A stretch of 64,000 bases of DNA from Clostridia bacterium. Lineage in GTDB: Bacteria > Bacillota > Peptococcia > Peptococcales > BICA1-8. The number at the start of each line of letters is the position of its first letter. Positions within the stretch are counted from its first letter, which is position 1. The stretch is from positions 2,710 through 66,709 of the forward strand of contig JASKKI010000004.1 in assembly GCA_030154225.1 (NCBI GenBank). The letters are read 5' to 3'. The notes beneath the pieces were generated by a model, which searched no databases, was not told where the DNA came from, and saw only the letters and a program-made list of their open reading frames with translations. Of the stretch, positions 2,803-41,820 are shown piece after piece. The position numbers and the translations under genes were made by a program.

Positions 2803-3018
2803 TTATTTTCCACTAATTTTATAAAAATATTTACGAAATTGCTCCACAGGATTAATTGTTTCCAATAAAGATGGAATAGAAGTTTCCAACTGGGTACTTT
2901 TACATTTAGGACAACAATTAAAATTATTAATAAACATAGACATCATTCCACCATTTCTTCTTAATATAACATACCAACCACAATCCTTACAGGTTAATTT
3001 ATAGGAACGTTCATACAT
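2803..3018 (-). CDS. small zinc-ribbon protein (71 aa from the internal ATG)
   Basis: The ORF-track entry is 99 aa. The ATG at 3018 is preceded by GGAGGT, 8 nt upstream. Cys pattern is CKDC-x21-CCPKC. No family recognised. Confidence 0.45.
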   Translation of the reverse strand: MYERSYKLTCKDCGWYVILRRNGGMMSMFINNFNCCPKCKSTQLETSIPSLLETINPVEQFRKYFYKISGK

Positions 3019-3162
3019 ACTAAAACCTCCATGAACTTTAAACTTTTTTATCATAGATAATAATATCCTGTAATTTATTATATAGCAACTCTTCCTCTTC
3101 AAATTTACTGCACTTGACTTATTAATAAACCCTTTTTAAATTTAAGAAATTTGGATCATAGC

Positions 3163-3191
3163 TTGAATTAAATTAATATTTATGGTATTAT
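3163..3191 (+). promoter_or_regulatory. sigma-A type promoter for the L-box transcript
   Basis: TTGAAT (3163-3168), 17-nt spacer, TATTAT (3186-3191). Confidence 0.5.
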
Positions 3192-3220
3192 TAAGTGAAT
3201 TTAATATAATATTACCTCAT

Positions 3221-3466
3221 CTCTTTCCGAGGTGGGGTAGAGGCGCGGTACCTATTAGTACTATGGGGAGCTAGGGAGCTAGGAACTATAGGAAAGGAGT
3301 TACCGCCGAAGTGCAGTAAAGTCCCAACTTACTGTGCTGGGCCTGCATACGAATAGGTGCAGGACTGTCATCAAGGGAGTATCCGCCCCTTGATGGAGTG
3401 CTATCTCACGGAGGAAAGGGGGAAAGTGGGTTATCTACTAAGCTTCTTTCATCAGAAGCTTTTTAA
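3221..3466 (+). promoter_or_regulatory. lysine riboswitch (L-box) with terminator expression platform
   Basis: L-box signature blocks occur in the correct order: AGAGGCGC (3239-3246), CCGCCGAAG (3303-3311), CTGGGCCTGCA, ACTGTCA (3364-3370), GGAGTGCTATC (3395-3405). These are followed by the AAGCTTCT/AGAAGCTT hairpin plus T-run (3440-3465). Compared from memory with the B. subtilis lysC leader. Confidence 0.85.
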
Positions 3467-3504
3467 TTTGCATCAAACTTAAAACCTACTAAGGAGGTAA
3501 TAAA

Positions 3505-3678
3505 ATGGAGGCATATTGCAGTTATTGTGGAAATCCTCTTGATACTGAAAATAAAGTTACTTTTCATTTAGGTGATGAAGAAATAAATTCTTGTGAAGGA
3601 GAATGTTTAATCTATCTCTATCAAGAGTACCAGCAAAAAAGAAGCTTTTCCACTTGGATAAATATAAATAAAAATTAA
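3505..3678 (+). CDS. 57-aa Cys-rich (CxxC-x21-CxxxC) small protein, function unknown
   Basis: ATG at 3505 sits 7 nt after the strong SD AAGGAGG. Translation is MEAYCSYCGNPLDTENKVTFHLGDEEINSCEGECLIYLYQEYQQKRSFSTWININKN*. Too short for the ORF track. It lies between the L-box terminator and its own terminator. Confidence 0.55.
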   Translation: MEAYCSYCGNPLDTENKVTFHLGDEEINSCEGECLIYLYQEYQQKRSFSTWININKN

Positions 3679-3682
3679 TAAT

Positions 3683-3713
3683 AGTGACCACTATTTCCAG
3701 TGGTCACTTTTTT
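3683..3713 (+). terminator. intrinsic terminator
   Basis: AGTGACCACT / AGTGGTCACT perfect 10-bp stem with a 6-nt loop and a T6 run. Confidence 0.85.
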
Positions 3714-3767
3714 AGTTATCTGATATTATTGTATTAAAAAAACAGCCATAGCTGGGAGGCCTCAATA

Positions 3768-4124
3768 ATGTTTGTAGATAATTTTACAGTATTTATAACA
3801 GGGAAATCCAAATTTAAAAAAGGCACTACAGAAGGTAAAATTTTCCAATACGCAACTTTAGGTGTAGAAATAGACTTAACAACAGAACAAATTTTAGAGG
3901 CTGAATGTACCCTTTGTAATAACCTGGAAATTAAGTATATTTCCCAACTCTTAAAAGGTAAAAAATTAACCGATGAAGGTTTTCTAGAACTATATGATGA
4001 AATAAATAAACGGATGCATGGACTAAACAAGCAGGGTATTCTTGCCGCCTTAAATGATCTAAAATGTAATTGGGATAGATATTACCTGTTAGAACAAACA
4101 CAAACTACACCTATAGATCCTTAA
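3768..4124 (+). CDS. hypothetical protein
   Basis: 118-aa ORF with SD GGGAGG upstream. Preferred over the antisense ORF at 3734-4030, which lacks an SD. Confidence 0.5.
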   Translation: MFVDNFTVFITGKSKFKKGTTEGKIFQYATLGVEIDLTTEQILEAECTLCNNLEIKYISQLLKGKKLTDEGFLELYDEINKRMHGLNKQGILAALNDLKCNWDRYYLLEQTQTTPIDP

Positions 4125-4890
4125 TATTTATAACTTGCCCAACATGGAGTTGTGTACTACCAAAGTATTTATTAAATTCAACTAAAGCCGGAAATTCAGT
4201 ACAATGAGTTGGTAAAACCTTTTTCACATTTATTGATTTTAAATATTCAATTGTTTTTTTAGTTACAAAATCATTATCTTTAAGATGGAATCCTCCTATT
4301 ACTGCTAAAACCTCTTTTATACCGGTAATTTTAATAGCATAATCAACCATATTGCAAATTCCTGCATGTGCACACCCAGAAATTACAATTAATCCTTTTT
4401 CAGTTTTAATAGCCAATCCTGAATCATCATAAACAAAGTCTTTATTCCCATCTTCCTTTTTGAAAATTGTCTCTTTAGCCTCAAAATCATTTAATCTGGG
4501 TATTTCACCAAGAAAAATAGTATTTTCATCAAAACTAAATGGTTTTTTTGTTAGAATAAGATGAAATCTTTTTTCTCCTTCTTTTAAATCAAAAGGTAAT
4601 CCTATATGTTCCCCATCCCTAAATCGTTTAATAAATGCTTCGGGATGGCAAACAAGCTTTTTTTTAGGAAGATATTTCAAGCCATTCCCGTGGTCCCAAT
4701 GCCCATGACTTAAAACTAGATAGTCGGCATTCATAATATTTATATCCATCTTTTCTGCATTTTTTAAAAAAAGATCGGATGCACCAAAATCCAATAAAAT
4801 ATTTGTTCCTGCTTCAATATAAATAGACAATCCCCATTCTGCTGAATATTTTCTACTGGCACAATTATCGGATAAAATAGTTATTTTCAA
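4111..4890 (-). CDS. MBL-fold metallo-hydrolase
   Basis: 259 aa with the HGHWDHGNG metal-binding motif (HxHxDH). Confidence 0.85.
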   Translation of the reverse strand: MKITILSDNCASRKYSAEWGLSIYIEAGTNILLDFGASDLFLKNAEKMDINIMNADYLVLSHGHWDHGNGLKYLPKKKLVCHPEAFIKRFRDGEHIGLPFDLKEGEKRFHLILTKKPFSFDENTIFLGEIPRLNDFEAKETIFKKEDGNKDFVYDDSGLAIKTEKGLIVISGCAHAGICNMVDYAIKITGIKEVLAVIGGFHLKDNDFVTKKTIEYLKSINVKKVLPTHCTEFPALVEFNKYFGSTQLHVGQVINIKDL

Positions 4891-4923: not shown

Positions 4924-5976
4924 TTACAAGAAAAAACTATAGACAACCGGGATAATTAAAATTGCCGTAATTAAACGTAGTAATTGTAAAGAGCCTACTA
5001 CAACTACGTCAGCTTTAACTTGGTCGGCAATTAACACCATTGGGGCGAGACCACCAGGTATGATGCTCAAAAAACCTGTTATAAAATCCCATTTGAAAAT
5101 CTTACTAAATATCCAGGCCAAAACTAGACTGTTAAATATTATTAAGAAGGTTATCAAAACAATAGAATGGCTTAAAGTAGGGACACTAAAAAAACTTTCC
5201 CGGGTAAAGTTAGTACCAATAATACTTCCCATACCTACTTGAGCAAAATTATAAAAATAAACGGGTGGTTTAGACACTTTTTTAAAAGGGCTGAAATTGT
5301 AAGTTGCAATAAAAAATATAGCACCTATTAACCTGCCAGCCGGAAAATTTAAAATTGTAAAAATTATACTCCCTATACTACCTAAAACAAAAAATACCCA
5401 CCAGTTTTTTTTACTAATTGAGGTATTTGGGTCTGACTTATTTTCCAGATGATCTTCATCACCATAATGTTCCCCATTATCAGGAAAAACCTTTTTGACC
5501 AATATCGGTACTAAAAAGACAATTGTAAGAAGCCTGGCCAATTGAAAAGAAGTAATTTGGGCTAAATCTGCATGATATGATAAAGCAAGAACACTTACCT
5601 CAGCTATACCTCCAGGTACTACAGATAAAAATGCTGTCGATTTCTCTAAAAAGGAGGCTTCTAGAAGCAACCAACCATAAACAAATGTTATAAATAAATA
5701 CCAACTAATAAGTATTATTCCAGGCTTGAAAACAGATTTTAGCTGATTTAGAGTATTTTTATTAAACTTCAAACCGATAAAAACTCCCATAATAATTGAG
5801 CAAATCATTATGAAATAGTTAGGTGCAACTATATCTAACCCTAAAATTTTTAGAAAAGCAATTGCTAAAATTGGTCCGATTAACCTACCAGCAGGAATTT
5901 TTAATTTTAAACTAATTTGAGAACTAACATACCCAACACTTAGCAGAATAGTAACACTAACCAGTTGTTCAACCAC
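4924..5976 (-). CDS. AbrB-duplication family integral membrane protein (putative transporter)
   Basis: 350 aa and highly hydrophobic. Two internally similar halves each carry PAGRLIGP/A...; this resembles the 'AbrB family / putative ammonia monooxygenase' membrane proteins. Confidence 0.55.
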   Translation of the reverse strand: MVEQLVSVTILLSVGYVSSQISLKLKIPAGRLIGPILAIAFLKILGLDIVAPNYFIMICSIIMGVFIGLKFNKNTLNQLKSVFKPGIILISWYLFITFVYGWLLLEASFLEKSTAFLSVVPGGIAEVSVLALSYHADLAQITSFQLARLLTIVFLVPILVKKVFPDNGEHYGDEDHLENKSDPNTSISKKNWWVFFVLGSIGSIIFTILNFPAGRLIGAIFFIATYNFSPFKKVSKPPVYFYNFAQVGMGSIIGTNFTRESFFSVPTLSHSIVLITFLIIFNSLVLAWIFSKIFKWDFITGFLSIIPGGLAPMVLIADQVKADVVVVGSLQLLRLITAILIIPVVYSFFL

Positions 5977-6132: not shown

Positions 6133-6801
6133 ATGGCAGATTCGGCAAGAGAAGGAATTCTTCAGCGGGATAAAGAAACATATGCAATTGTTCCAAAAAT
6201 TCCCATGGGAATGCTAACTCCCCAAATTCTTGAAAAAATTGCTTCTGTAGCAAAAAAATATAACATTCCTGCTCTCAAAATTACTTCTGCCCAAAGAATT
6301 GCATTAGTAGGTATTAAAAAGGAAGATGTGGAAAATGTTTGGGAAGATCTAGGAATGGAAGTTGGCTATCCTGTAGGAGCTTGTCTTCATTATGTCCAAT
6401 CCTGTCCAGGTACTGAGGTATGTCGTCTTGGACAAAGGGATTCCTTACATATGGCCCAAAAATTAGATGAACTCTTATCCCAGATGAATATTCCGGCTAA
6501 AACAAAGGTAGGAGTATCTGGCTGTCCTCTTAACTGTGGGGAAGGATTTGTACGGGATATTGGCTTGTTTGGTAAAAAAGAAACGGGCTGGACGGTCATA
6601 ATTGGTGGTAACTCCGGTAGAAACACCAGAATAGGTGATGTACTAGCAGAAGACCTTTCCGAAGAAGAAACTATTGATTTAATTAACAGATTTGCCCAAT
6701 TCTATATTGCTAATGCCAAAGGTAGAGAAAGACTTTACCGCTTTGTACCCAGAATAGGTATTGAGGAAATCAAAAAAGAGCTGGGATTAGTTCATAGTTA
6801 A
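6133..6801 (+). CDS. small nitrite/sulfite reductase-like (siroheme/4Fe-4S) protein
   Basis: 222 aa. CPGTEVCRLGQ ... SGCPLNCGE is the Cys cluster of the NIR_SIR ferredoxin-like/hemoprotein domains. Confidence 0.7.
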   Translation: MADSAREGILQRDKETYAIVPKIPMGMLTPQILEKIASVAKKYNIPALKITSAQRIALVGIKKEDVENVWEDLGMEVGYPVGACLHYVQSCPGTEVCRLGQRDSLHMAQKLDELLSQMNIPAKTKVGVSGCPLNCGEGFVRDIGLFGKKETGWTVIIGGNSGRNTRIGDVLAEDLSEEETIDLINRFAQFYIANAKGRERLYRFVPRIGIEEIKKELGLVHS

Positions 6802-37750: not shown

Positions 37751-38608
37751 TTAATTACAAGTACTATGCAAATTTCTAATTATATTGATAATTTCTTCCC
37801 TTGTCCTGGGAATTTTAGTGTATTCAGCTATTTCGGTGTTTCCCATTAATTCATCAAAGATTTCGAGGACCCAGGGCTTTATAAGATTTGCTTTCTTAAG
37901 AATATTCTCATTTCTAAAAACTTCTTCCGGTAACCCTTGAGCAATAATTTCACCAGCATTAATAACAAAAACATAATCTGCCCAAGCATATATTTCATCT
38001 ATATTATGGCTGGAAAGAACTATAGTAGTTCCATTTTTATTAAAATCATCCAATAACTTCATGATCTGACCGGTATAAATGGGATCCAAACCAGCTGTAG
38101 GCTCATCCAGGATAATGATTTCTGGCTCCATTACTAAAATCCCGGCAATGGCAACCCGTTTTTTTTGCCCATGACTTAAAGAATGGGTAGGTTTATCCCT
38201 TAAATCCCATGTTCCAGTTTGCTTCATTACCTTTTCAATCTTTGCTCTTATTTTGTTTTCTGGCCAACCTAAATTTACAGGACCAAAGGATATATCTTGA
38301 TAGACACTGGCAGAGAAAAGCTGGTTATCAGGATCCTGGAAAACTATCCCAATATTTTTTCGTAAAGTTTTTAATTGGGTCTTATTATAACTTAGCTTTT
38401 CACCTTTAAATAGGATTTCACCTTTTTGGGGCCGATGAACACCATTAAAATGCAAAAATAAAGTAGTTTTACCTGCTCCATTATTTCCCACTACGGCAAT
38501 TTTCTTGCCTTGGGGGATTTTTAATGAAAGGTCTTTAATGGCTTTAGTACCGTCTAGATACGAAAATTCAATTTTTTTTGCTTCTAATATGTATTGAAAC
38601 ATTTGCAA
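37751..38608 (-). CDS. cbiO: cobalt ECF transporter ATPase
   Basis: Walker A GNNGAGKTT, LSHGQKKRVAIAG, IIILDEPTAGLD. Last gene of the cbiMNQO cluster. Confidence 0.85.
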   Translation of the reverse strand: MQMFQYILEAKKIEFSYLDGTKAIKDLSLKIPQGKKIAVVGNNGAGKTTLFLHFNGVHRPQKGEILFKGEKLSYNKTQLKTLRKNIGIVFQDPDNQLFSASVYQDISFGPVNLGWPENKIRAKIEKVMKQTGTWDLRDKPTHSLSHGQKKRVAIAGILVMEPEIIILDEPTAGLDPIYTGQIMKLLDDFNKNGTTIVLSSHNIDEIYAWADYVFVINAGEIIAQGLPEEVFRNENILKKANLIKPWVLEIFDELMGNTEIAEYTKIPRTREEIINIIRNLHSTCN

Positions 38609-38613
38609 ACCTC

Positions 38614-39378
38614 CTAAATAAAGGCCATTATAATCAATAATAAATCTATTATGCCAAATGTAATTATATAAACTTTGGAAAAACGATATTTGGGATTCAG
38701 TACCTGAAGCTTATTTTCATAACCCCTAGATAATAAGCTGATAAATAAGGCCTTTGATTTTAAGAAGGCTTTGCCCCATAAATTAGCAAAAAGAATCCCC
38801 AAGGAATAGATTGATCTTTTAAAATTACAATAACCCCAGCGAGATGACTGAGCAGTATAGATATTAAAGGCTGTTTCTATAAAAATAAAAATAAACCTAT
38901 AAACCAAAATCATTAGCTCAGTCACAATATTAGGCATTTTTAAAATTTCTAAAACATAAATTAATTCTATCATGGGTGTCGTTAATGCCAAAAAATACAG
39001 ACAAGAAATAGAACTTAAAGCTCTTAGCATAGTACTAATAGCAAGATTTAAGCTTTTAAAGGTAATCCCTAGATAATAAGTCCCCACCGGTATATATGCT
39101 AGCATATCATTTGGACTGAAACTAATTGAAATTGCAATAGTAACCACACCCAAGACTAAAAAACCCATTGGAATAAGCATTAGCCTAACTACCACAAAAC
39201 TAGGAATTTTAGCCCAATAAATCAAGAAACTTAACATAATAGTTACAATAATAAGGTTTATTAAAGGATTATTTGTTAATATACCGATTATCAATGTAAC
39301 AAAAGCAAAGATAAATCTCTCTAAAGGGTGTGAATTCCGTAATTTGTTGGTATAGACAAATTCATCAACATAGAGCAT
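38614..39378 (-). CDS. cbiQ: cobalt ECF transporter T component
   Basis: 254-aa polytopic membrane protein. Call rests on its position in the operon and its CbiQ-like size. Confidence 0.8.
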   Translation of the reverse strand: MLYVDEFVYTNKLRNSHPLERFIFAFVTLIIGILTNNPLINLIIVTIMLSFLIYWAKIPSFVVVRLMLIPMGFLVLGVVTIAISISFSPNDMLAYIPVGTYYLGITFKSLNLAISTMLRALSSISCLYFLALTTPMIELIYVLEILKMPNIVTELMILVYRFIFIFIETAFNIYTAQSSRWGYCNFKRSIYSLGILFANLWGKAFLKSKALFISLLSRGYENKLQVLNPKYRFSKVYIITFGIIDLLLIIMAFI

Positions 39379-39689
39379 TATTTATCACTAACCTTTTTTT
39401 GACCTCTTTTCAAACCAATGTAATAACCTAAAAATCCTGCACCTAAAGCTGCTTGTAGGGCAAACAGCAAACTTTCTGTTTCTCCTCCAGGGGGTTCCCA
39501 AAAGGAATTAAACCACGGTTTGTAGCTAGGATTAATTTCCTTTATCATTTCCTCTGCCGCTCCATCAGCACCACCAAACTCTGAGTTATTAATAACCAGT
39601 AAAGGAAGTAAAATTAAGAACACAACTAAAGAAAGTAAAACCAAGTTTTTACGTATTAAGGTCATTACTAAGACCTCCTTTGGTTTCAT
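39378..39689 (-). CDS. cbiN: cobalt transport protein CbiN
   Basis: About 95-103 aa with two TM segments and the [23 protein letters not shown] motif. The true start may be the internal ATG at 39665. Confidence 0.85.
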
Positions 39690-40419
39690 TAAATATGTTT
39701 AATAGAGATAATTCACTTTTACTATAAGTAGCTAGGAAATTATATACAACCACTGTTAATAGTCCTTCACTTATAGCCAGTGGTATTTGAGTAAAAGCAA
39801 AGATACCGAGAAATTTACCAGCCGAGGCGACAACTCCTCCCACTTCTGCGGGAAAAGCAAGTGCCAACTGTAAAGAAGTAGTAAGATAAGTCATTAAATC
39901 TCCTAAAAAGGCCGCACAAAATATAGAAACACCATTGGAAAAACCCATTTTTTTAATAAACTTATATGTATAATAGGCAACAAAGGGCCCCACTATGGCC
40001 ATGGAAAAAGTATTGGCACCTAAAGTGGTAATTCCACCATGGGCTAATAATAATGCTTGAAATAGTAAAATAATACAACCTAATACACTCATTACATATG
40101 GCCCAAACAATACTGCACCTAACCCTACACCTGTAGGATGGGAGCTGCTTCCTGTTACCGAGGGTATTTTTAAAGCTGATAAAACAAAAGCAAATGCCCC
40201 CGAGACCCCTAATAACAATTTCAATTGGGGATTTTGGGATAACTTCCGGGAAATTGAAACAATTCCGAAAATAAGAAAGGGTAAACTAATAATTGTCCAA
40301 ATTAGGGCCCACTTTAACGGTAAAAACCCTTCCATTATGTGCATAGCAAATGCCGGCTTTGGTATTAAAATAAATAATCCTAAAATAAAAAAAGTCGTAA
40401 TGCACTTTTTAAGAATCAT
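39649..40419 (-). CDS. cbiM: cobalt ECF transporter substrate component CbiM
   Basis: Signal-like N-terminus followed by MHIMEGFLP (the conserved CbiM mature N-terminus). 7-TM profile. Confidence 0.9.
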
Positions 40420-40512: not shown

Positions 40513-40785
40513 ATAAAAAATCCCTCAGCCTATTGCTGAGGGACGGTACCCGCATACCTTCTCTCAAGCAGCCTACCCTTCCCTAGATGGCAGCTTCCTT
40601 TTAGGCAGGTCTTCTGGCTCACGGGTCATTCTCCTCCCACGCCTTCCCATCCGGCACTCAATAATCATTTACCTTCCATTGAGTTCCGGACAGTGACATA
40701 ATGGGGATTTGTATCCGTTTACAGCGGCGGGTCCGCACCGGATTCTAACCGGTTTCCCTATTCTCCCATACAGGGCACCTAAAAG
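40513..40785 (-). promoter_or_regulatory. cobalamin (AdoCbl) riboswitch with terminator
   Basis: The minus strand reads GGTGCC...AATAGGGAAACCGGTTAGAATCCGGTGCGGACCCGCCGCTGTAAACGG...GTCACTG...GAGCCAGAAGACCTGCC (B12 box). It ends in the CCCTCAGC/GCTGAGGG hairpin plus T7 (40513-40543). Confidence 0.9.
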
Positions 40786-40857
40786 ATTTATTTATAATTA
40801 TTATTCACCTTTGGACAAATTATAACATAAATTCAGCATTTGCTCCAGAGATTATGT

Positions 40858-41820
40858 TTATTTTAGTGCTTCTTTTAGAACCATTAAATTTTCATACATA
40901 ATAGTAAAATAGTCTTTACCGGCCTCAATGTCTTCTTTTGTTAGATTTCCCAAAGGATTTAAAACCTTTGTATTTATACCTGCTTCCCTAGCTAATACGT
41001 CTGCCACTTTTGAGCTGATCAATGATTCAGTAAAAATATATTTTAGCTTATGTTCTTTTGTAACATTAATTAATTCTACCATTCTTTTTGGCGTAGGTTC
41101 AGTATGGGGATTTATTCCCATAATAGGGATTTGAATTAAACCATATCGCTTAGCCAGGTATCCAAAAGCAGCATGATTAACAATAAATTCTTTCCTAGTA
41201 ATATCCTGTAATCCCTCTTTAAAAGCTTTGTCTAACTGGTCCAATTCCTTTATTAATTTATAATAATTCTCCTCATAATAATCCTCATTAGCCGGGTCCT
41301 CTTTAATTATCGCATTTTTTATATTGTGAGCTATTACTTTACTATTAATAGGGTCTAACCATACATGGGGGTCAAATTCTTCCTCAAATTTCTCTTGTTC
41401 CTGTCCCTTTTCTTTTTCATCTTCGCCATGACCATGGTTATCTCCTTGCCCTTTTAATAATTGTATTCCTTCAGTGGCATTGACAACTTGCAAATTTTCG
41501 TTTTTTAAAACATCCGCTATCTTAACAATCCAATCCTCCATTCCAGCTCCATTAAATAATAATATACTAGTTTTTTCCAGACCAACTAAATCACTAGGTG
41601 TTGGTTCCCAGCTATGAGGGTCAACTCCTAAAGGAACTAAACTTTCCACTTTCATTTTCTCCCCGACAATCCTATGGGCAAAATAATACAAAGAATAATT
41701 GGCAGCTTTAATTGATGGCTTTATAACTTCATTACTTATGTTTTTACCAGTACTTAATGTACAACCAGAAATAATATTTAATATAAAGCTTAATAAAACA
41801 CCTAAAATTATTTTTTTCAT
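40858..41820 (-). CDS. metal (probably zinc) ABC transporter substrate-binding lipoprotein, ZnuA/TroA family
   Basis: Lipobox NIISGC. Conserved HSWEP and DPHVW metal-ligand regions. Acidic/His-rich loop GDNHGHGEDEKEKGQEQEKFEEEFDPHVW. Confidence 0.8.
   Translation of the reverse strand: MKKIILGVLLSFILNIISGCTLSTGKNISNEVIKPSIKAANYSLYYFAHRIVGEKMKVESLVPLGVDPHSWEPTPSDLVGLEKTSILLFNGAGMEDWIVKIADVLKNENLQVVNATEGIQLLKGQGDNHGHGEDEKEKGQEQEKFEEEFDPHVWLDPINSKVIAHNIKNAIIKEDPANEDYYEENYYKLIKELDQLDKAFKEGLQDITRKEFIVNHAAFGYLAKRYGLIQIPIMGINPHTEPTPKRMVELINVTKEHKLKYIFTESLISSKVADVLAREAGINTKVLNPLGNLTKEDIEAGKDYFTIMYENLMVLKEALK

Follow-up and report, generated by a model that had tools for sequence, protein, structure and literature searches.

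Organization of the lysine riboswitch locus

The stretch of DNA analysed here (hereafter the window) comprises 64,000 nucleotides (nt) from a Clostridia bacterium of the Peptococcales lineage BICA1-8 (assembly GCA_030154225.1, contig JASKKI010000004.1, positions 2,710 to 66,709), and near its beginning a lysine riboswitch (L-box) stands directly in front of a very small open reading frame (ORF) that encodes a cysteine-rich protein of 57 amino acids (aa). We call the ORF the mini-gene and its product the mini-protein. A preliminary description of this DNA, made from the letters alone, had listed a promoter, an L-box aptamer with a terminator behind it, a strong Shine-Dalgarno (SD) sequence, the ORF with its motif CSYC-x21-CEGEC and a second terminator immediately after it, and all of these are present at the places it gave or within a few bases of them. 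From 5' to 3', the locus contains the following features:

3163 to 3191, plus strand: sigma-A type promoter, found by consensus scan and at the same place in 13 homologous loci
3214 to 3238, plus strand: 5' hairpin of 10 base pairs (bp), ACCUCAUCUC, loop, GAGGUGGGGU, with a stem kept across loci and exclusive with P1/P0 in constrained folds
3220 to 3228, plus strand: pyrimidine tract UCUCUUUCC, the 5' strand of a P1 extension, "P0", pairing with 3413-3421 (sequence and constrained folds)
3230 to 3411, plus strand: lysine riboswitch aptamer (Rfam RF00168)
3410 to 3426, plus strand: purine tract GGAGGAAAGGGGGAAAG, the putative switching strand, recognized from alternative folds and kept in all loci
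3425 to 3490, plus strand: long-range helix between AGUGGGUU (3425-3432) and AACCUACU (3483-3490), recognized from compensatory variants across loci
3440 to 3466, plus strand: riboswitch terminator, an 8-bp stem AAGCUUCU/AGAAGCUU and then a U run (terminator scan, folding)
3491 to 3498, plus strand: SD sequence AAGGAGGT (AAGGAGGU), 6 nt 5' of the ATG at 3505
3505 to 3678, plus strand: mini-gene, encoding a 57-aa acidic four-cysteine protein with a predicted L24e/TRASH-like fold (ORF, homologues, substitution rates, fold and motif)
3683 to 3714, plus strand: mini-gene terminator, a 10-bp stem and then T6 (scan and folding), which is also a hairpin on the minus strand

The promoter combines a -35 box TTGAAT (3163-3168), a 17-nt spacer and a TG-extended -10 box TATTAT (3186-3191) and would place the transcription start near 3198; in 13 of 13 aligned loci the boxes TTGAA(A/T) and TG-n-TAnnAT lie at a constant distance from the leader. 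The covariance-model search that the preliminary description had proposed for the aptamer gives 116.8 bits for RF00168 at 3230-3411 on the plus strand (gathering score 30, E-value 1.6e-30), with model positions 1-182 of 182 covered and P1 formed by 3232-3240 and 3401-3409. The remaining leader elements also recur elsewhere. The stem of the 5' hairpin, ACCUCAUCUC / GAGGUGAGGU, shows little or no variation in any of the loci, in contrast to its pyrimidine-rich loop, which differs in sequence and length; the purine tract GGAGGAAAGGAGG follows directly 3' of P1, with GGA(A)AGGAGG conserved in all loci; a hairpin with a U run equivalent to the window's riboswitch terminator (3440-3461, 8 bp, -8.2 kcal/mol, followed by TTTTT) is found in every homologous leader; and an (A)GGAGG(U) SD sequence is likewise conserved throughout. 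The common order is promoter, 5' hairpin, aptamer, purine tract, short spacer, terminator, A/T-rich spacer and SD sequence. Given the covariance-model score and the recurrence of the whole arrangement in other genomes, a chance arrangement is excluded.

Four terminator-like hairpins were found in the region by the scan, against 0.9 expected, those on the plus strand lying at 3440-3461 and 3683-3708. The latter has 10 bp and a folding energy of -15.2 kcal/mol and is followed by TTTTTT; the next plus-strand gene, at 3768-4124, lies beyond it, as had been described, and encodes a DUF3870 protein (Pfam E-value 4e-16). A GC-rich hairpin with a T run occurs within about 5-75 nt after the stop codon in all loci except two (L018 and L021), and these hairpins are unrelated in sequence (for example GTGACCACT..AGTGGTCAC, CCGGCTAAGCCGG, GTGAGCACT..AGTGCTCAC, CGGGCCTAGCCCG, GGTGACCATTTGGTCACC, CGCCCTCGGGCG and GGTCGTCCTTCCGGGCGACC). 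With the ORF so regularly followed by terminator-like hairpins that share no sequence, the transcription unit appears to be monocistronic. The genes that come next differ. DUF3870 and metallo-beta-lactamase (MBL)-fold genes are downstream only in the window lineage and in that of the homologue P0005, in both cases beyond the terminator, and the DUF3870 gene is missing from most homologous loci; in L001, L004, L012 and L013 the next gene is a convergent one for an AbrB-family (PF05145) membrane protein, and in L018 the gene after the mini-gene is preceded by a promoter and a T-box leader of its own. To the extent that sequence can tell, the mini-gene is thus the sole cargo of the riboswitch-controlled unit, which is what the preliminary description had proposed.

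The L-box and the mini-gene stay together across lineages

We fetched the DNA around every family member that could be located and scanned it with Rfam, so that 16 lineages were examined. A lysine riboswitch lies directly 5' of the mini-gene in 15 of them. The close ones are the window lineage (L007), P0002 (L001-L003), P0003 (L004-L006), P0004 (L011), L012-L015 and P0005 (L026, L027); the distant ones are P0009 (L017), P0011 (L018, L019), P0015 (L020), P0016 (L021), P0018 (L023) and P0017 (L024). Complete aptamers upstream of the homologues score 111-125 bits, and that of P0004, which is cut by the 5' end of its contig, 75 bits. The remaining lineage is that of P0007 (L022, 345-506), a 47% identical protein with the JGI name "ribosomal protein L24E" and an ordinary AT-rich upstream region.

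The distant members are 33-47% identical to the window protein and have as neighbours flagellar genes, SRAP, a gene for an FlK-like thioesterase, a nicotinate phosphoribosyltransferase-like gene or a T-box-controlled aminoacyl-tRNA synthetase gene. Synteny is clade-specific, involving either AbrB-family, NIR_SIR, AEC and DUF6198 genes or SRAP, FlK-like and nicotinate phosphoribosyltransferase-like genes. Since the distant members sit among entirely different genes, shared synteny does not explain why L-box and mini-gene remain paired, and the recurrence of this pairing in 15 of 16 related lineages argues that this is a lysine-regulated gene not described before and not a leader in decay. Of the two possibilities raised in the preliminary description, this favours the lysine-responsive small protein, as does the selection on its sequence (see below).

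Two neighbours, the AbrB-family gene (window 4924-5976, minus strand) and a small NIR_SIR ferredoxin-like gene (6133-6801, plus strand), keep their place beside the mini-gene throughout the close clade and are absent near distant members. At L018 the mini-gene is immediately followed by a T-box leader (3099-3356, 108 bits) together with the gene of a class Ib aminoacyl-tRNA synthetase, placing two amino-acid-sensing leaders back to back.

A rare protein family under purifying selection

A word-indexed search of 5.8 billion proteins retrieved four relatives of the mini-protein. When 1.84 billion representatives were searched exhaustively with a HMMER profile, a few more distant members of 51-56 aa came to light, but no larger protein containing the domain. 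A further profile search returned 14 clusters whose proteins measure 51-72 aa; the gene call of the 72-aa member is too long. The family is therefore rare, with about 14-18 clusters among 5.8 billion proteins and members of 51-59 aa, and a scan of metagenome contigs returned nothing beyond the L015 sequence again (as L025). Four long profile matches (P0006, P0008, P0010 and P0012) were judged unrelated, as they match only the repeated zinc-knuckle peptide YCSVCGEEL, and a 456-aa MATE efflux protein (P0028) that shares a 90% cluster with the 51-aa mini-protein P0017 is a clustering artefact and not a fusion. Among GTDB representatives, all carriers are metagenome-assembled Bacillota (Peptococcaceae BICA1-8, "Clostridiaceae" BRH_c20a, and metagenome-assembled genomes (MAGs) of Peptococcaceae and Peptococcales), and the carrier MAGs include JBMOKT01, JUEF01, LADT01 and JBMNCQ01; BICA1-8 and BRH_c20a reportedly come from borehole samples of the Opalinus Clay. 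For the distant clade, a neighbouring gene has its nearest named relatives in MAGs of Peptococcaceae, Peptococcales and Clostridia.

Pairwise Nei-Gojobori comparison of nine close members gave ratios of nonsynonymous to synonymous change (dN/dS) of 0.03-0.34, mostly about 0.1, with synonymous differences (pS) of 0.5-0.8 per site, i.e. near saturation. Judged by this substitution pattern, the mini-ORF is a real gene under strong purifying selection at the protein level; the bias towards synonymous change was one of the signs by which the preliminary description had suggested that such a gene be recognized.

The window protein reads MEAYCSYCGNPLDTENKVTFHLGDEEINSCEGECLIYLYQEYQQKRSFSTWININKN, its cysteines being arranged as C5-S-Y-C8, 21 residues, and C30-E-G-E-C34. 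All 16 members tabulated share the pattern C-x2-C-x19-22-C-x3-C and have an isoelectric point (pI) of 4.05-6.0; the window protein has nine D/E against four K/R and a net charge of about -5, and no lysine is conserved in the family. In an alignment of 18 sequences nine columns are invariant, the four cysteines among them, and two stretches are specific to the family: the invariant helix I-Y-(L/Y/F)-(Y/F/H)-Q-E-(Y)-Q-Q (IYLYQEYQQ) and the tail F-x-(T/S)-W-(I/V). The cysteine spacing matches that of the TRASH motif as it was reportedly defined by Ettema in 2003.

Pfam and NCBIfam place the mini-protein in no family and yield only sub-threshold zinc-ribbon matches. Among 12 members searched against Pfam, Arc_trans_TRASH (E-value 4.5e-4), YHS and zf-FCS were each matched by one and DUF2116, a "probable treble clef", by three, all below the gathering scores, and the Ribosomal_L24e model was matched by none at E-values up to 10. 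The best match of the family profile among PDB sequences is archaeal L24e (E-value 7.4e-4, 22 bits), with all four cysteines aligned. An AlphaFold (AF2) model built from the 18 sequences (mean predicted local distance difference test score, pLDDT, 83.5) contains a knuckle, a beta-hairpin with strands 17-22 and 25-30 and a helix 33-45, and its 50 top Foldseek matches in the PDB are almost all eL24, L24e or Rlp24 (probability up to 0.99, best E-value 0.04); an earlier model with a pLDDT of 68.8 gave the identical list. This order of elements is that of the TRASH/L24e-like treble clef, whose helix provides the last two metal ligands. Three independent tests thus agree, each weakly to moderately, on a predicted treble-clef fold of the L24e/TRASH type. 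The protein probably binds zinc, and the suggestion of a "Zn-binding regulator or chaperone" in the preliminary description would fit the predicted four-cysteine fold. Being acidic and without a match to the L24e model, the mini-protein does not appear to be ribosomal L24e, and its acidity also makes nucleic-acid binding unlikely.

A predicted OFF switch

P1 can be extended across a 3x3 internal loop by pairing of 3220-3228 (UCUCUUUCC) with 3413-3421 (GGAAAGGGG). The purines at 3414-3421 have a second possible partner in 3443-3450 (CUUCUUUC), which makes up the 5' half of the terminator, and when the 3' part of the window leader is folded alone the two alternatives are 0.4 kcal/mol apart. The 3' arm of the 5' hairpin is the 5' strand of P1, and the hairpin also overlaps the pyrimidine tract; in constrained folds it and P1/P0 are mutually exclusive. 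Lying outside the Rfam aptamer model, the hairpin (3214-3238) is a candidate for an anti-P1 element that acts when lysine is absent. Enforcing P1 produced the P0 extension and the terminator in 13 of 13 full leaders, and with the 5' hairpin enforced the purine-tract antiterminator appeared in six of the 13 (the window, L001, L004, L013, L014 and L021), most of the others keeping their terminator; the two states differ by 0-5.7 kcal/mol.

The riboswitch terminator lies 30 nt beyond P1, without overlap, which is the layout of an OFF switch. Because the terminator does not overlap P1, and because lysine-stabilized P1 sequesters the only strand able to disrupt it, we favour a transcriptional OFF switch, with the consequence that the mini-protein would be made when lysine is scarce. 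In such a mechanism the sigma-A promoter would drive an L-box whose P1, once lysine is bound, forms and is extended by 3220-3228/3413-3421, leaving the terminator at 3440-3461 free to form. Without lysine, the 5' hairpin at 3214-3238 would hold the 5' strand of P1 and the purine tract would pair with the terminator's 5' half at 3443-3450, so that RNA polymerase reads on into the only cargo, a presumably well-translated 57-aa gene ending at its own strong terminator.

One further element of the leader, the long-range helix, surrounds the riboswitch terminator and ends 2 nt 5' of the SD sequence. A helix of 6-9 bp occurs at this place in all eight close-clade loci and in L018, in five variants (AGUGGGUU/AACCUACU, AGUAGG/CCUACU, AGUGGUU/AACCACU, AAGUUGGU/ACCAAUUU and GACAUGUG/UACAUGUU), and these five different sequence pairs therefore indicate compensatory change. 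Per-sequence shuffle tests of this helix were not significant, and for that reason, with the compensatory variants as its one line of evidence, we have kept it out of the mechanism. Two other ideas about the leader were discarded: a leader peptide starting at GTG 3427 behind the SD-like purine tract, as the other loci do not conserve a start codon at this place, and a second, translational layer in which a 5' UUACCUC would pair with the SD sequence GAGGUAA, as no covariation was seen in L013 or L017.

Interpretation and alternative explanations

Taken as a whole, the locus is best explained as a monocistronic, lysine-repressed unit that encodes a small, probably zinc-binding four-cysteine protein, a reading to which we give a probability of roughly 0.6. 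The parts of it that lie closest to the DNA, namely a functional OFF-type L-box, a monocistronic unit and a real four-cysteine protein, are together likely. What the product does is a much more tentative matter. It may be a soluble zinc-finger mini-protein that is induced by lysine limitation and binds another protein affecting the supply or use of lysine. We lean towards a protein-binding effector because the mini-protein is too small and featureless for an enzyme, is acidic, is conserved over almost its whole surface and has its expression tied to one metabolite. Such an effector would contact its target, for example an enzyme, a transporter or a regulator involved in supplying or consuming lysine, by means of the helix IYLYQEYQQ and the tail F-x-T-W-I. 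One could then imagine, with similar reserve, a two-tier circuit in which the riboswitch senses lysine and its sole output is a trans-acting zinc-finger mini-protein that controls a riboswitch-less enzyme or transporter post-translationally.

Several observations weigh against this reading. The direction of the switch comes from thermodynamic folding only, and seven of the 13 leaders, mostly those of the distant clade, form the terminator or some other pairing although the 5' hairpin is enforced. P0007 has no L-box in the 344 nt upstream of it, even at E-values up to 1. The matches to L24e and TRASH, in sequence as well as in fold, are below conventional significance (Foldseek E-value 0.04, Pfam gathering scores unmet). 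In the loci examined no neighbour is conserved across clades, the profile search found no fusions, and nothing identifies a partner. Finally, all carriers are uncultured and known from metagenome assemblies.

One may also consider that the switch works the other way round, high lysine inducing the monocistronic mini-gene unit and the mini-protein handling the excess, for instance by restraining biosynthesis or by activating catabolism or export. Terminator and antiterminator are almost isoenergetic, the purine-tract antiterminator was not seen in 7/13 leaders with the 5' hairpin enforced, and in a published survey lysine riboswitches stand upstream of some catabolic genes (PMC5584792), all of which would suit an ON switch. 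Nevertheless, such a switch would need a terminator that overlaps P1, which is not the arrangement here, and it is at odds both with the formation of the terminator in every leader with P1 enforced and with a terminator-disrupting purine tract that the P1 extension sequesters only in the bound state; we therefore consider induction by lysine unlikely. Slightly less probable again is a ribosome-associated factor, a bacterial L24e-like protein that would bind ribosomes or lysine-rich ribosomal proteins under lysine starvation. It would account for the L24e/eL24/Rlp24 proteins being the best matches in sequence and fold, for the automated names of two members ("ribosomal protein L24E" and "ribosome-binding protein aMBF1") and for a near-complete surface conservation that suggests a highly conserved partner; yet the mini-protein is acidic, with the pI range and the net charge of about -5 given above, whereas L24e is basic and binds rRNA, the L24e model of Pfam is not matched, and the likeness is limited to a four-cysteine treble clef that is common to many TRASH/FCS proteins.

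The three other explanations that we considered have far lower probabilities. If the protein were incidental, the riboswitch RNA could act by antisense pairing or transcriptional interference on the convergent AbrB-family gene, which is directly 3' of the mini-gene in the four loci named above, and the terminator of the window mini-gene does form a hairpin on the minus strand as well. This is improbable given the strong protein-level selection on the ORF and the strong terminators between the two genes, and also since two other genes intervene in the window and in L026 and since the pairing of L-box and mini-ORF persists in the distant clade, which has no convergent AbrB gene. More doubtful still is an amino-group carrier of the LysW/ArgW type for a lysine biosynthetic route, to which the preliminary description had pointed while remarking that the acidic EDWGE-type C-terminus of LysW is absent. 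Small size, acidity, a Cys4 zinc-ribbon-like character and control by lysine naturally bring LysW to mind, but the aligned tails (...FSTWININKN, ...TWINVR, ...TWITK, ...SWVKIR) bear out that remark, no LysW model in Pfam or NCBIfam is matched, none of about 20 loci contains lysX/Z/Y/J/K-like genes, and the second pair of ligands is spaced C-x3-C instead of forming a second CxxC knuckle, so this suggestion is not upheld. The least credible explanation, which the comparative data refute, is the other possibility raised in that description, a remnant leader whose ORF is decaying after loss of the original lysine gene. It would explain why no canonical lysine gene lies behind the riboswitch in the window, but hardly why the same ORF stands behind an L-box in 15 lineages with a dN/dS of about 0.1 and an intact SD sequence and start codon, why P0007 exists without any riboswitch, or why there is no larger homologue of which the mini-protein could be a fragment.

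Relation to known systems

In a 2017 survey, the cargo of lysine riboswitches consisted of genes for biosynthesis, transport and catabolism and of transporter-like hypotheticals (PMC5584792). The leader described here resembles those of Firmicute L-boxes such as that of Bacillus subtilis lysC in its five-helix aptamer, sigma-A promoter, terminator/antiterminator platform and predicted repression by lysine. In contrast to them, its cargo is a single protein of 51-59 aa outside the survey's lysine biosynthesis, transport and catabolism classes, and it has an invariant 5' hairpin competing with P1 and a covarying, terminator-enclosing helix beside the SD sequence. PMC7830388, citing Ettema et al. 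[quoted passage not shown] The mini-protein is similar to TRASH proteins in being a small stand-alone module with the same cysteine spacing, a predicted L24e-type treble clef and, in single members, weak matches to Arc_trans_TRASH, YHS and zf-FCS. Unlike them and CopM, it is bacterial and under the control of lysine rather than metal, has a helix and an F-x-T-W-I tail of its own and reaches no Pfam gathering score, and the mini-gene, unlike that of CopM, is not beside copA/copR or any metal-resistance gene. In the loci examined no metal ATPase was found among the neighbours (AEC and AbrB-family membrane proteins, SRAP, the FlK-like thioesterase and the nicotinate phosphoribosyltransferase-like protein).

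With L24e, eL24 and Rlp24 the mini-protein shares its best sequence-profile and fold matches, but it differs from them in its acidity and in lacking a match to the Pfam L24e model; bacterial ribosomes are not known to have an L24e site. With LysW it has in common a small size, acidity, a zinc-ribbon-like appearance and a link to lysine, but it has neither the EDWGE acceptor tail nor the partner enzymes nor a model match. As far as the proposed logic goes, the closest parallels are starvation-induced small effectors such as MntS (manganese limitation) and SgrT, which act post-translationally on a transporter or enzyme: the proteins have about 40-60 aa, their synthesis is confined to times of a low or a high nutrient signal, and they act, or in the case of the mini-protein would act, after translation. 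MntS and SgrT are unrelated to the mini-protein in sequence and are controlled by protein or small-RNA regulators, whereas here the sensor is a riboswitch.

The literature that we searched contained nothing on the mini-protein family or on a lysine riboswitch with a small protein as its cargo. The RNA itself is of a known class and unremarkable within it, whereas its cargo belongs to a protein family not described before, and, as far as that literature shows, their conserved pairing as a single-gene unit is new. Genes behind riboswitches have repeatedly pointed to unfamiliar biology, and here a known lysine sensor is tied, across sequence divergence and different genomic settings, to an unannotated family of tiny proteins without a Pfam model. 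The pairing offers a handle on an otherwise overlooked protein, which should matter when lysine is scarce. Should the mini-protein be a post-translational regulator, the control of lysine would have a further, new layer, and riboswitches that work by way of a small protein would have a new example; as an effector, it would extend the reach of the riboswitch to targets that carry no riboswitch themselves, and if the two-tier circuit is true, lysine homeostasis in anaerobic spore-forming Bacillota would include a component not recognized before. The significance of this is restricted by the rarity of the family, whose only known carriers are uncultured Peptococcales-like bacteria. The leader, too, has a compact design of natural origin, uniting a 5' anti-P1 hairpin, a purine tract that serves both the P1 extension and the antiterminator, and, adjacent to the SD sequence, a covarying helix.

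Other features of the neighbourhood

Between the mini-gene and the AbrB-family gene of the window lie the DUF3870 gene (3768-4124, plus strand) and a convergent gene for an MBL-fold protein (4111-4890, minus strand), and the same two genes are found in L026 (1537-2648). A promoter-like site of the DUF3870 gene, at 3701-3729, overlaps the mini-gene terminator. On the other side of the riboswitch, a divergent Cys-rich ORF of 94-99 aa (2803-3102, minus strand; CKDC...CPKC) belongs to no Pfam or NCBIfam family and is kept in the near-identical contigs L007-L009 and not in other lineages.

Farther away, a cobalamin riboswitch (RF00174, 120 bits) at 40587-40797 on the minus strand lies upstream of an operon for a cobalt energy-coupling factor (ECF) transporter with cbiM (39649-40419), cbiQ (38614-39378) and an ABC-ATPase gene (37751-38608), all on the minus strand, and a gene for a ZnuA-like binding protein (40858-41820, minus strand) is situated just upstream of that riboswitch. 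The window itself opens with panC (121-966) and panD (967-1350) of a pantothenate cluster, and in L007 a "pan" motif (RF01749, 62.6 bits) is found at 1438-1529, about 1 kb before the start of the window and upstream of the pantothenate genes.

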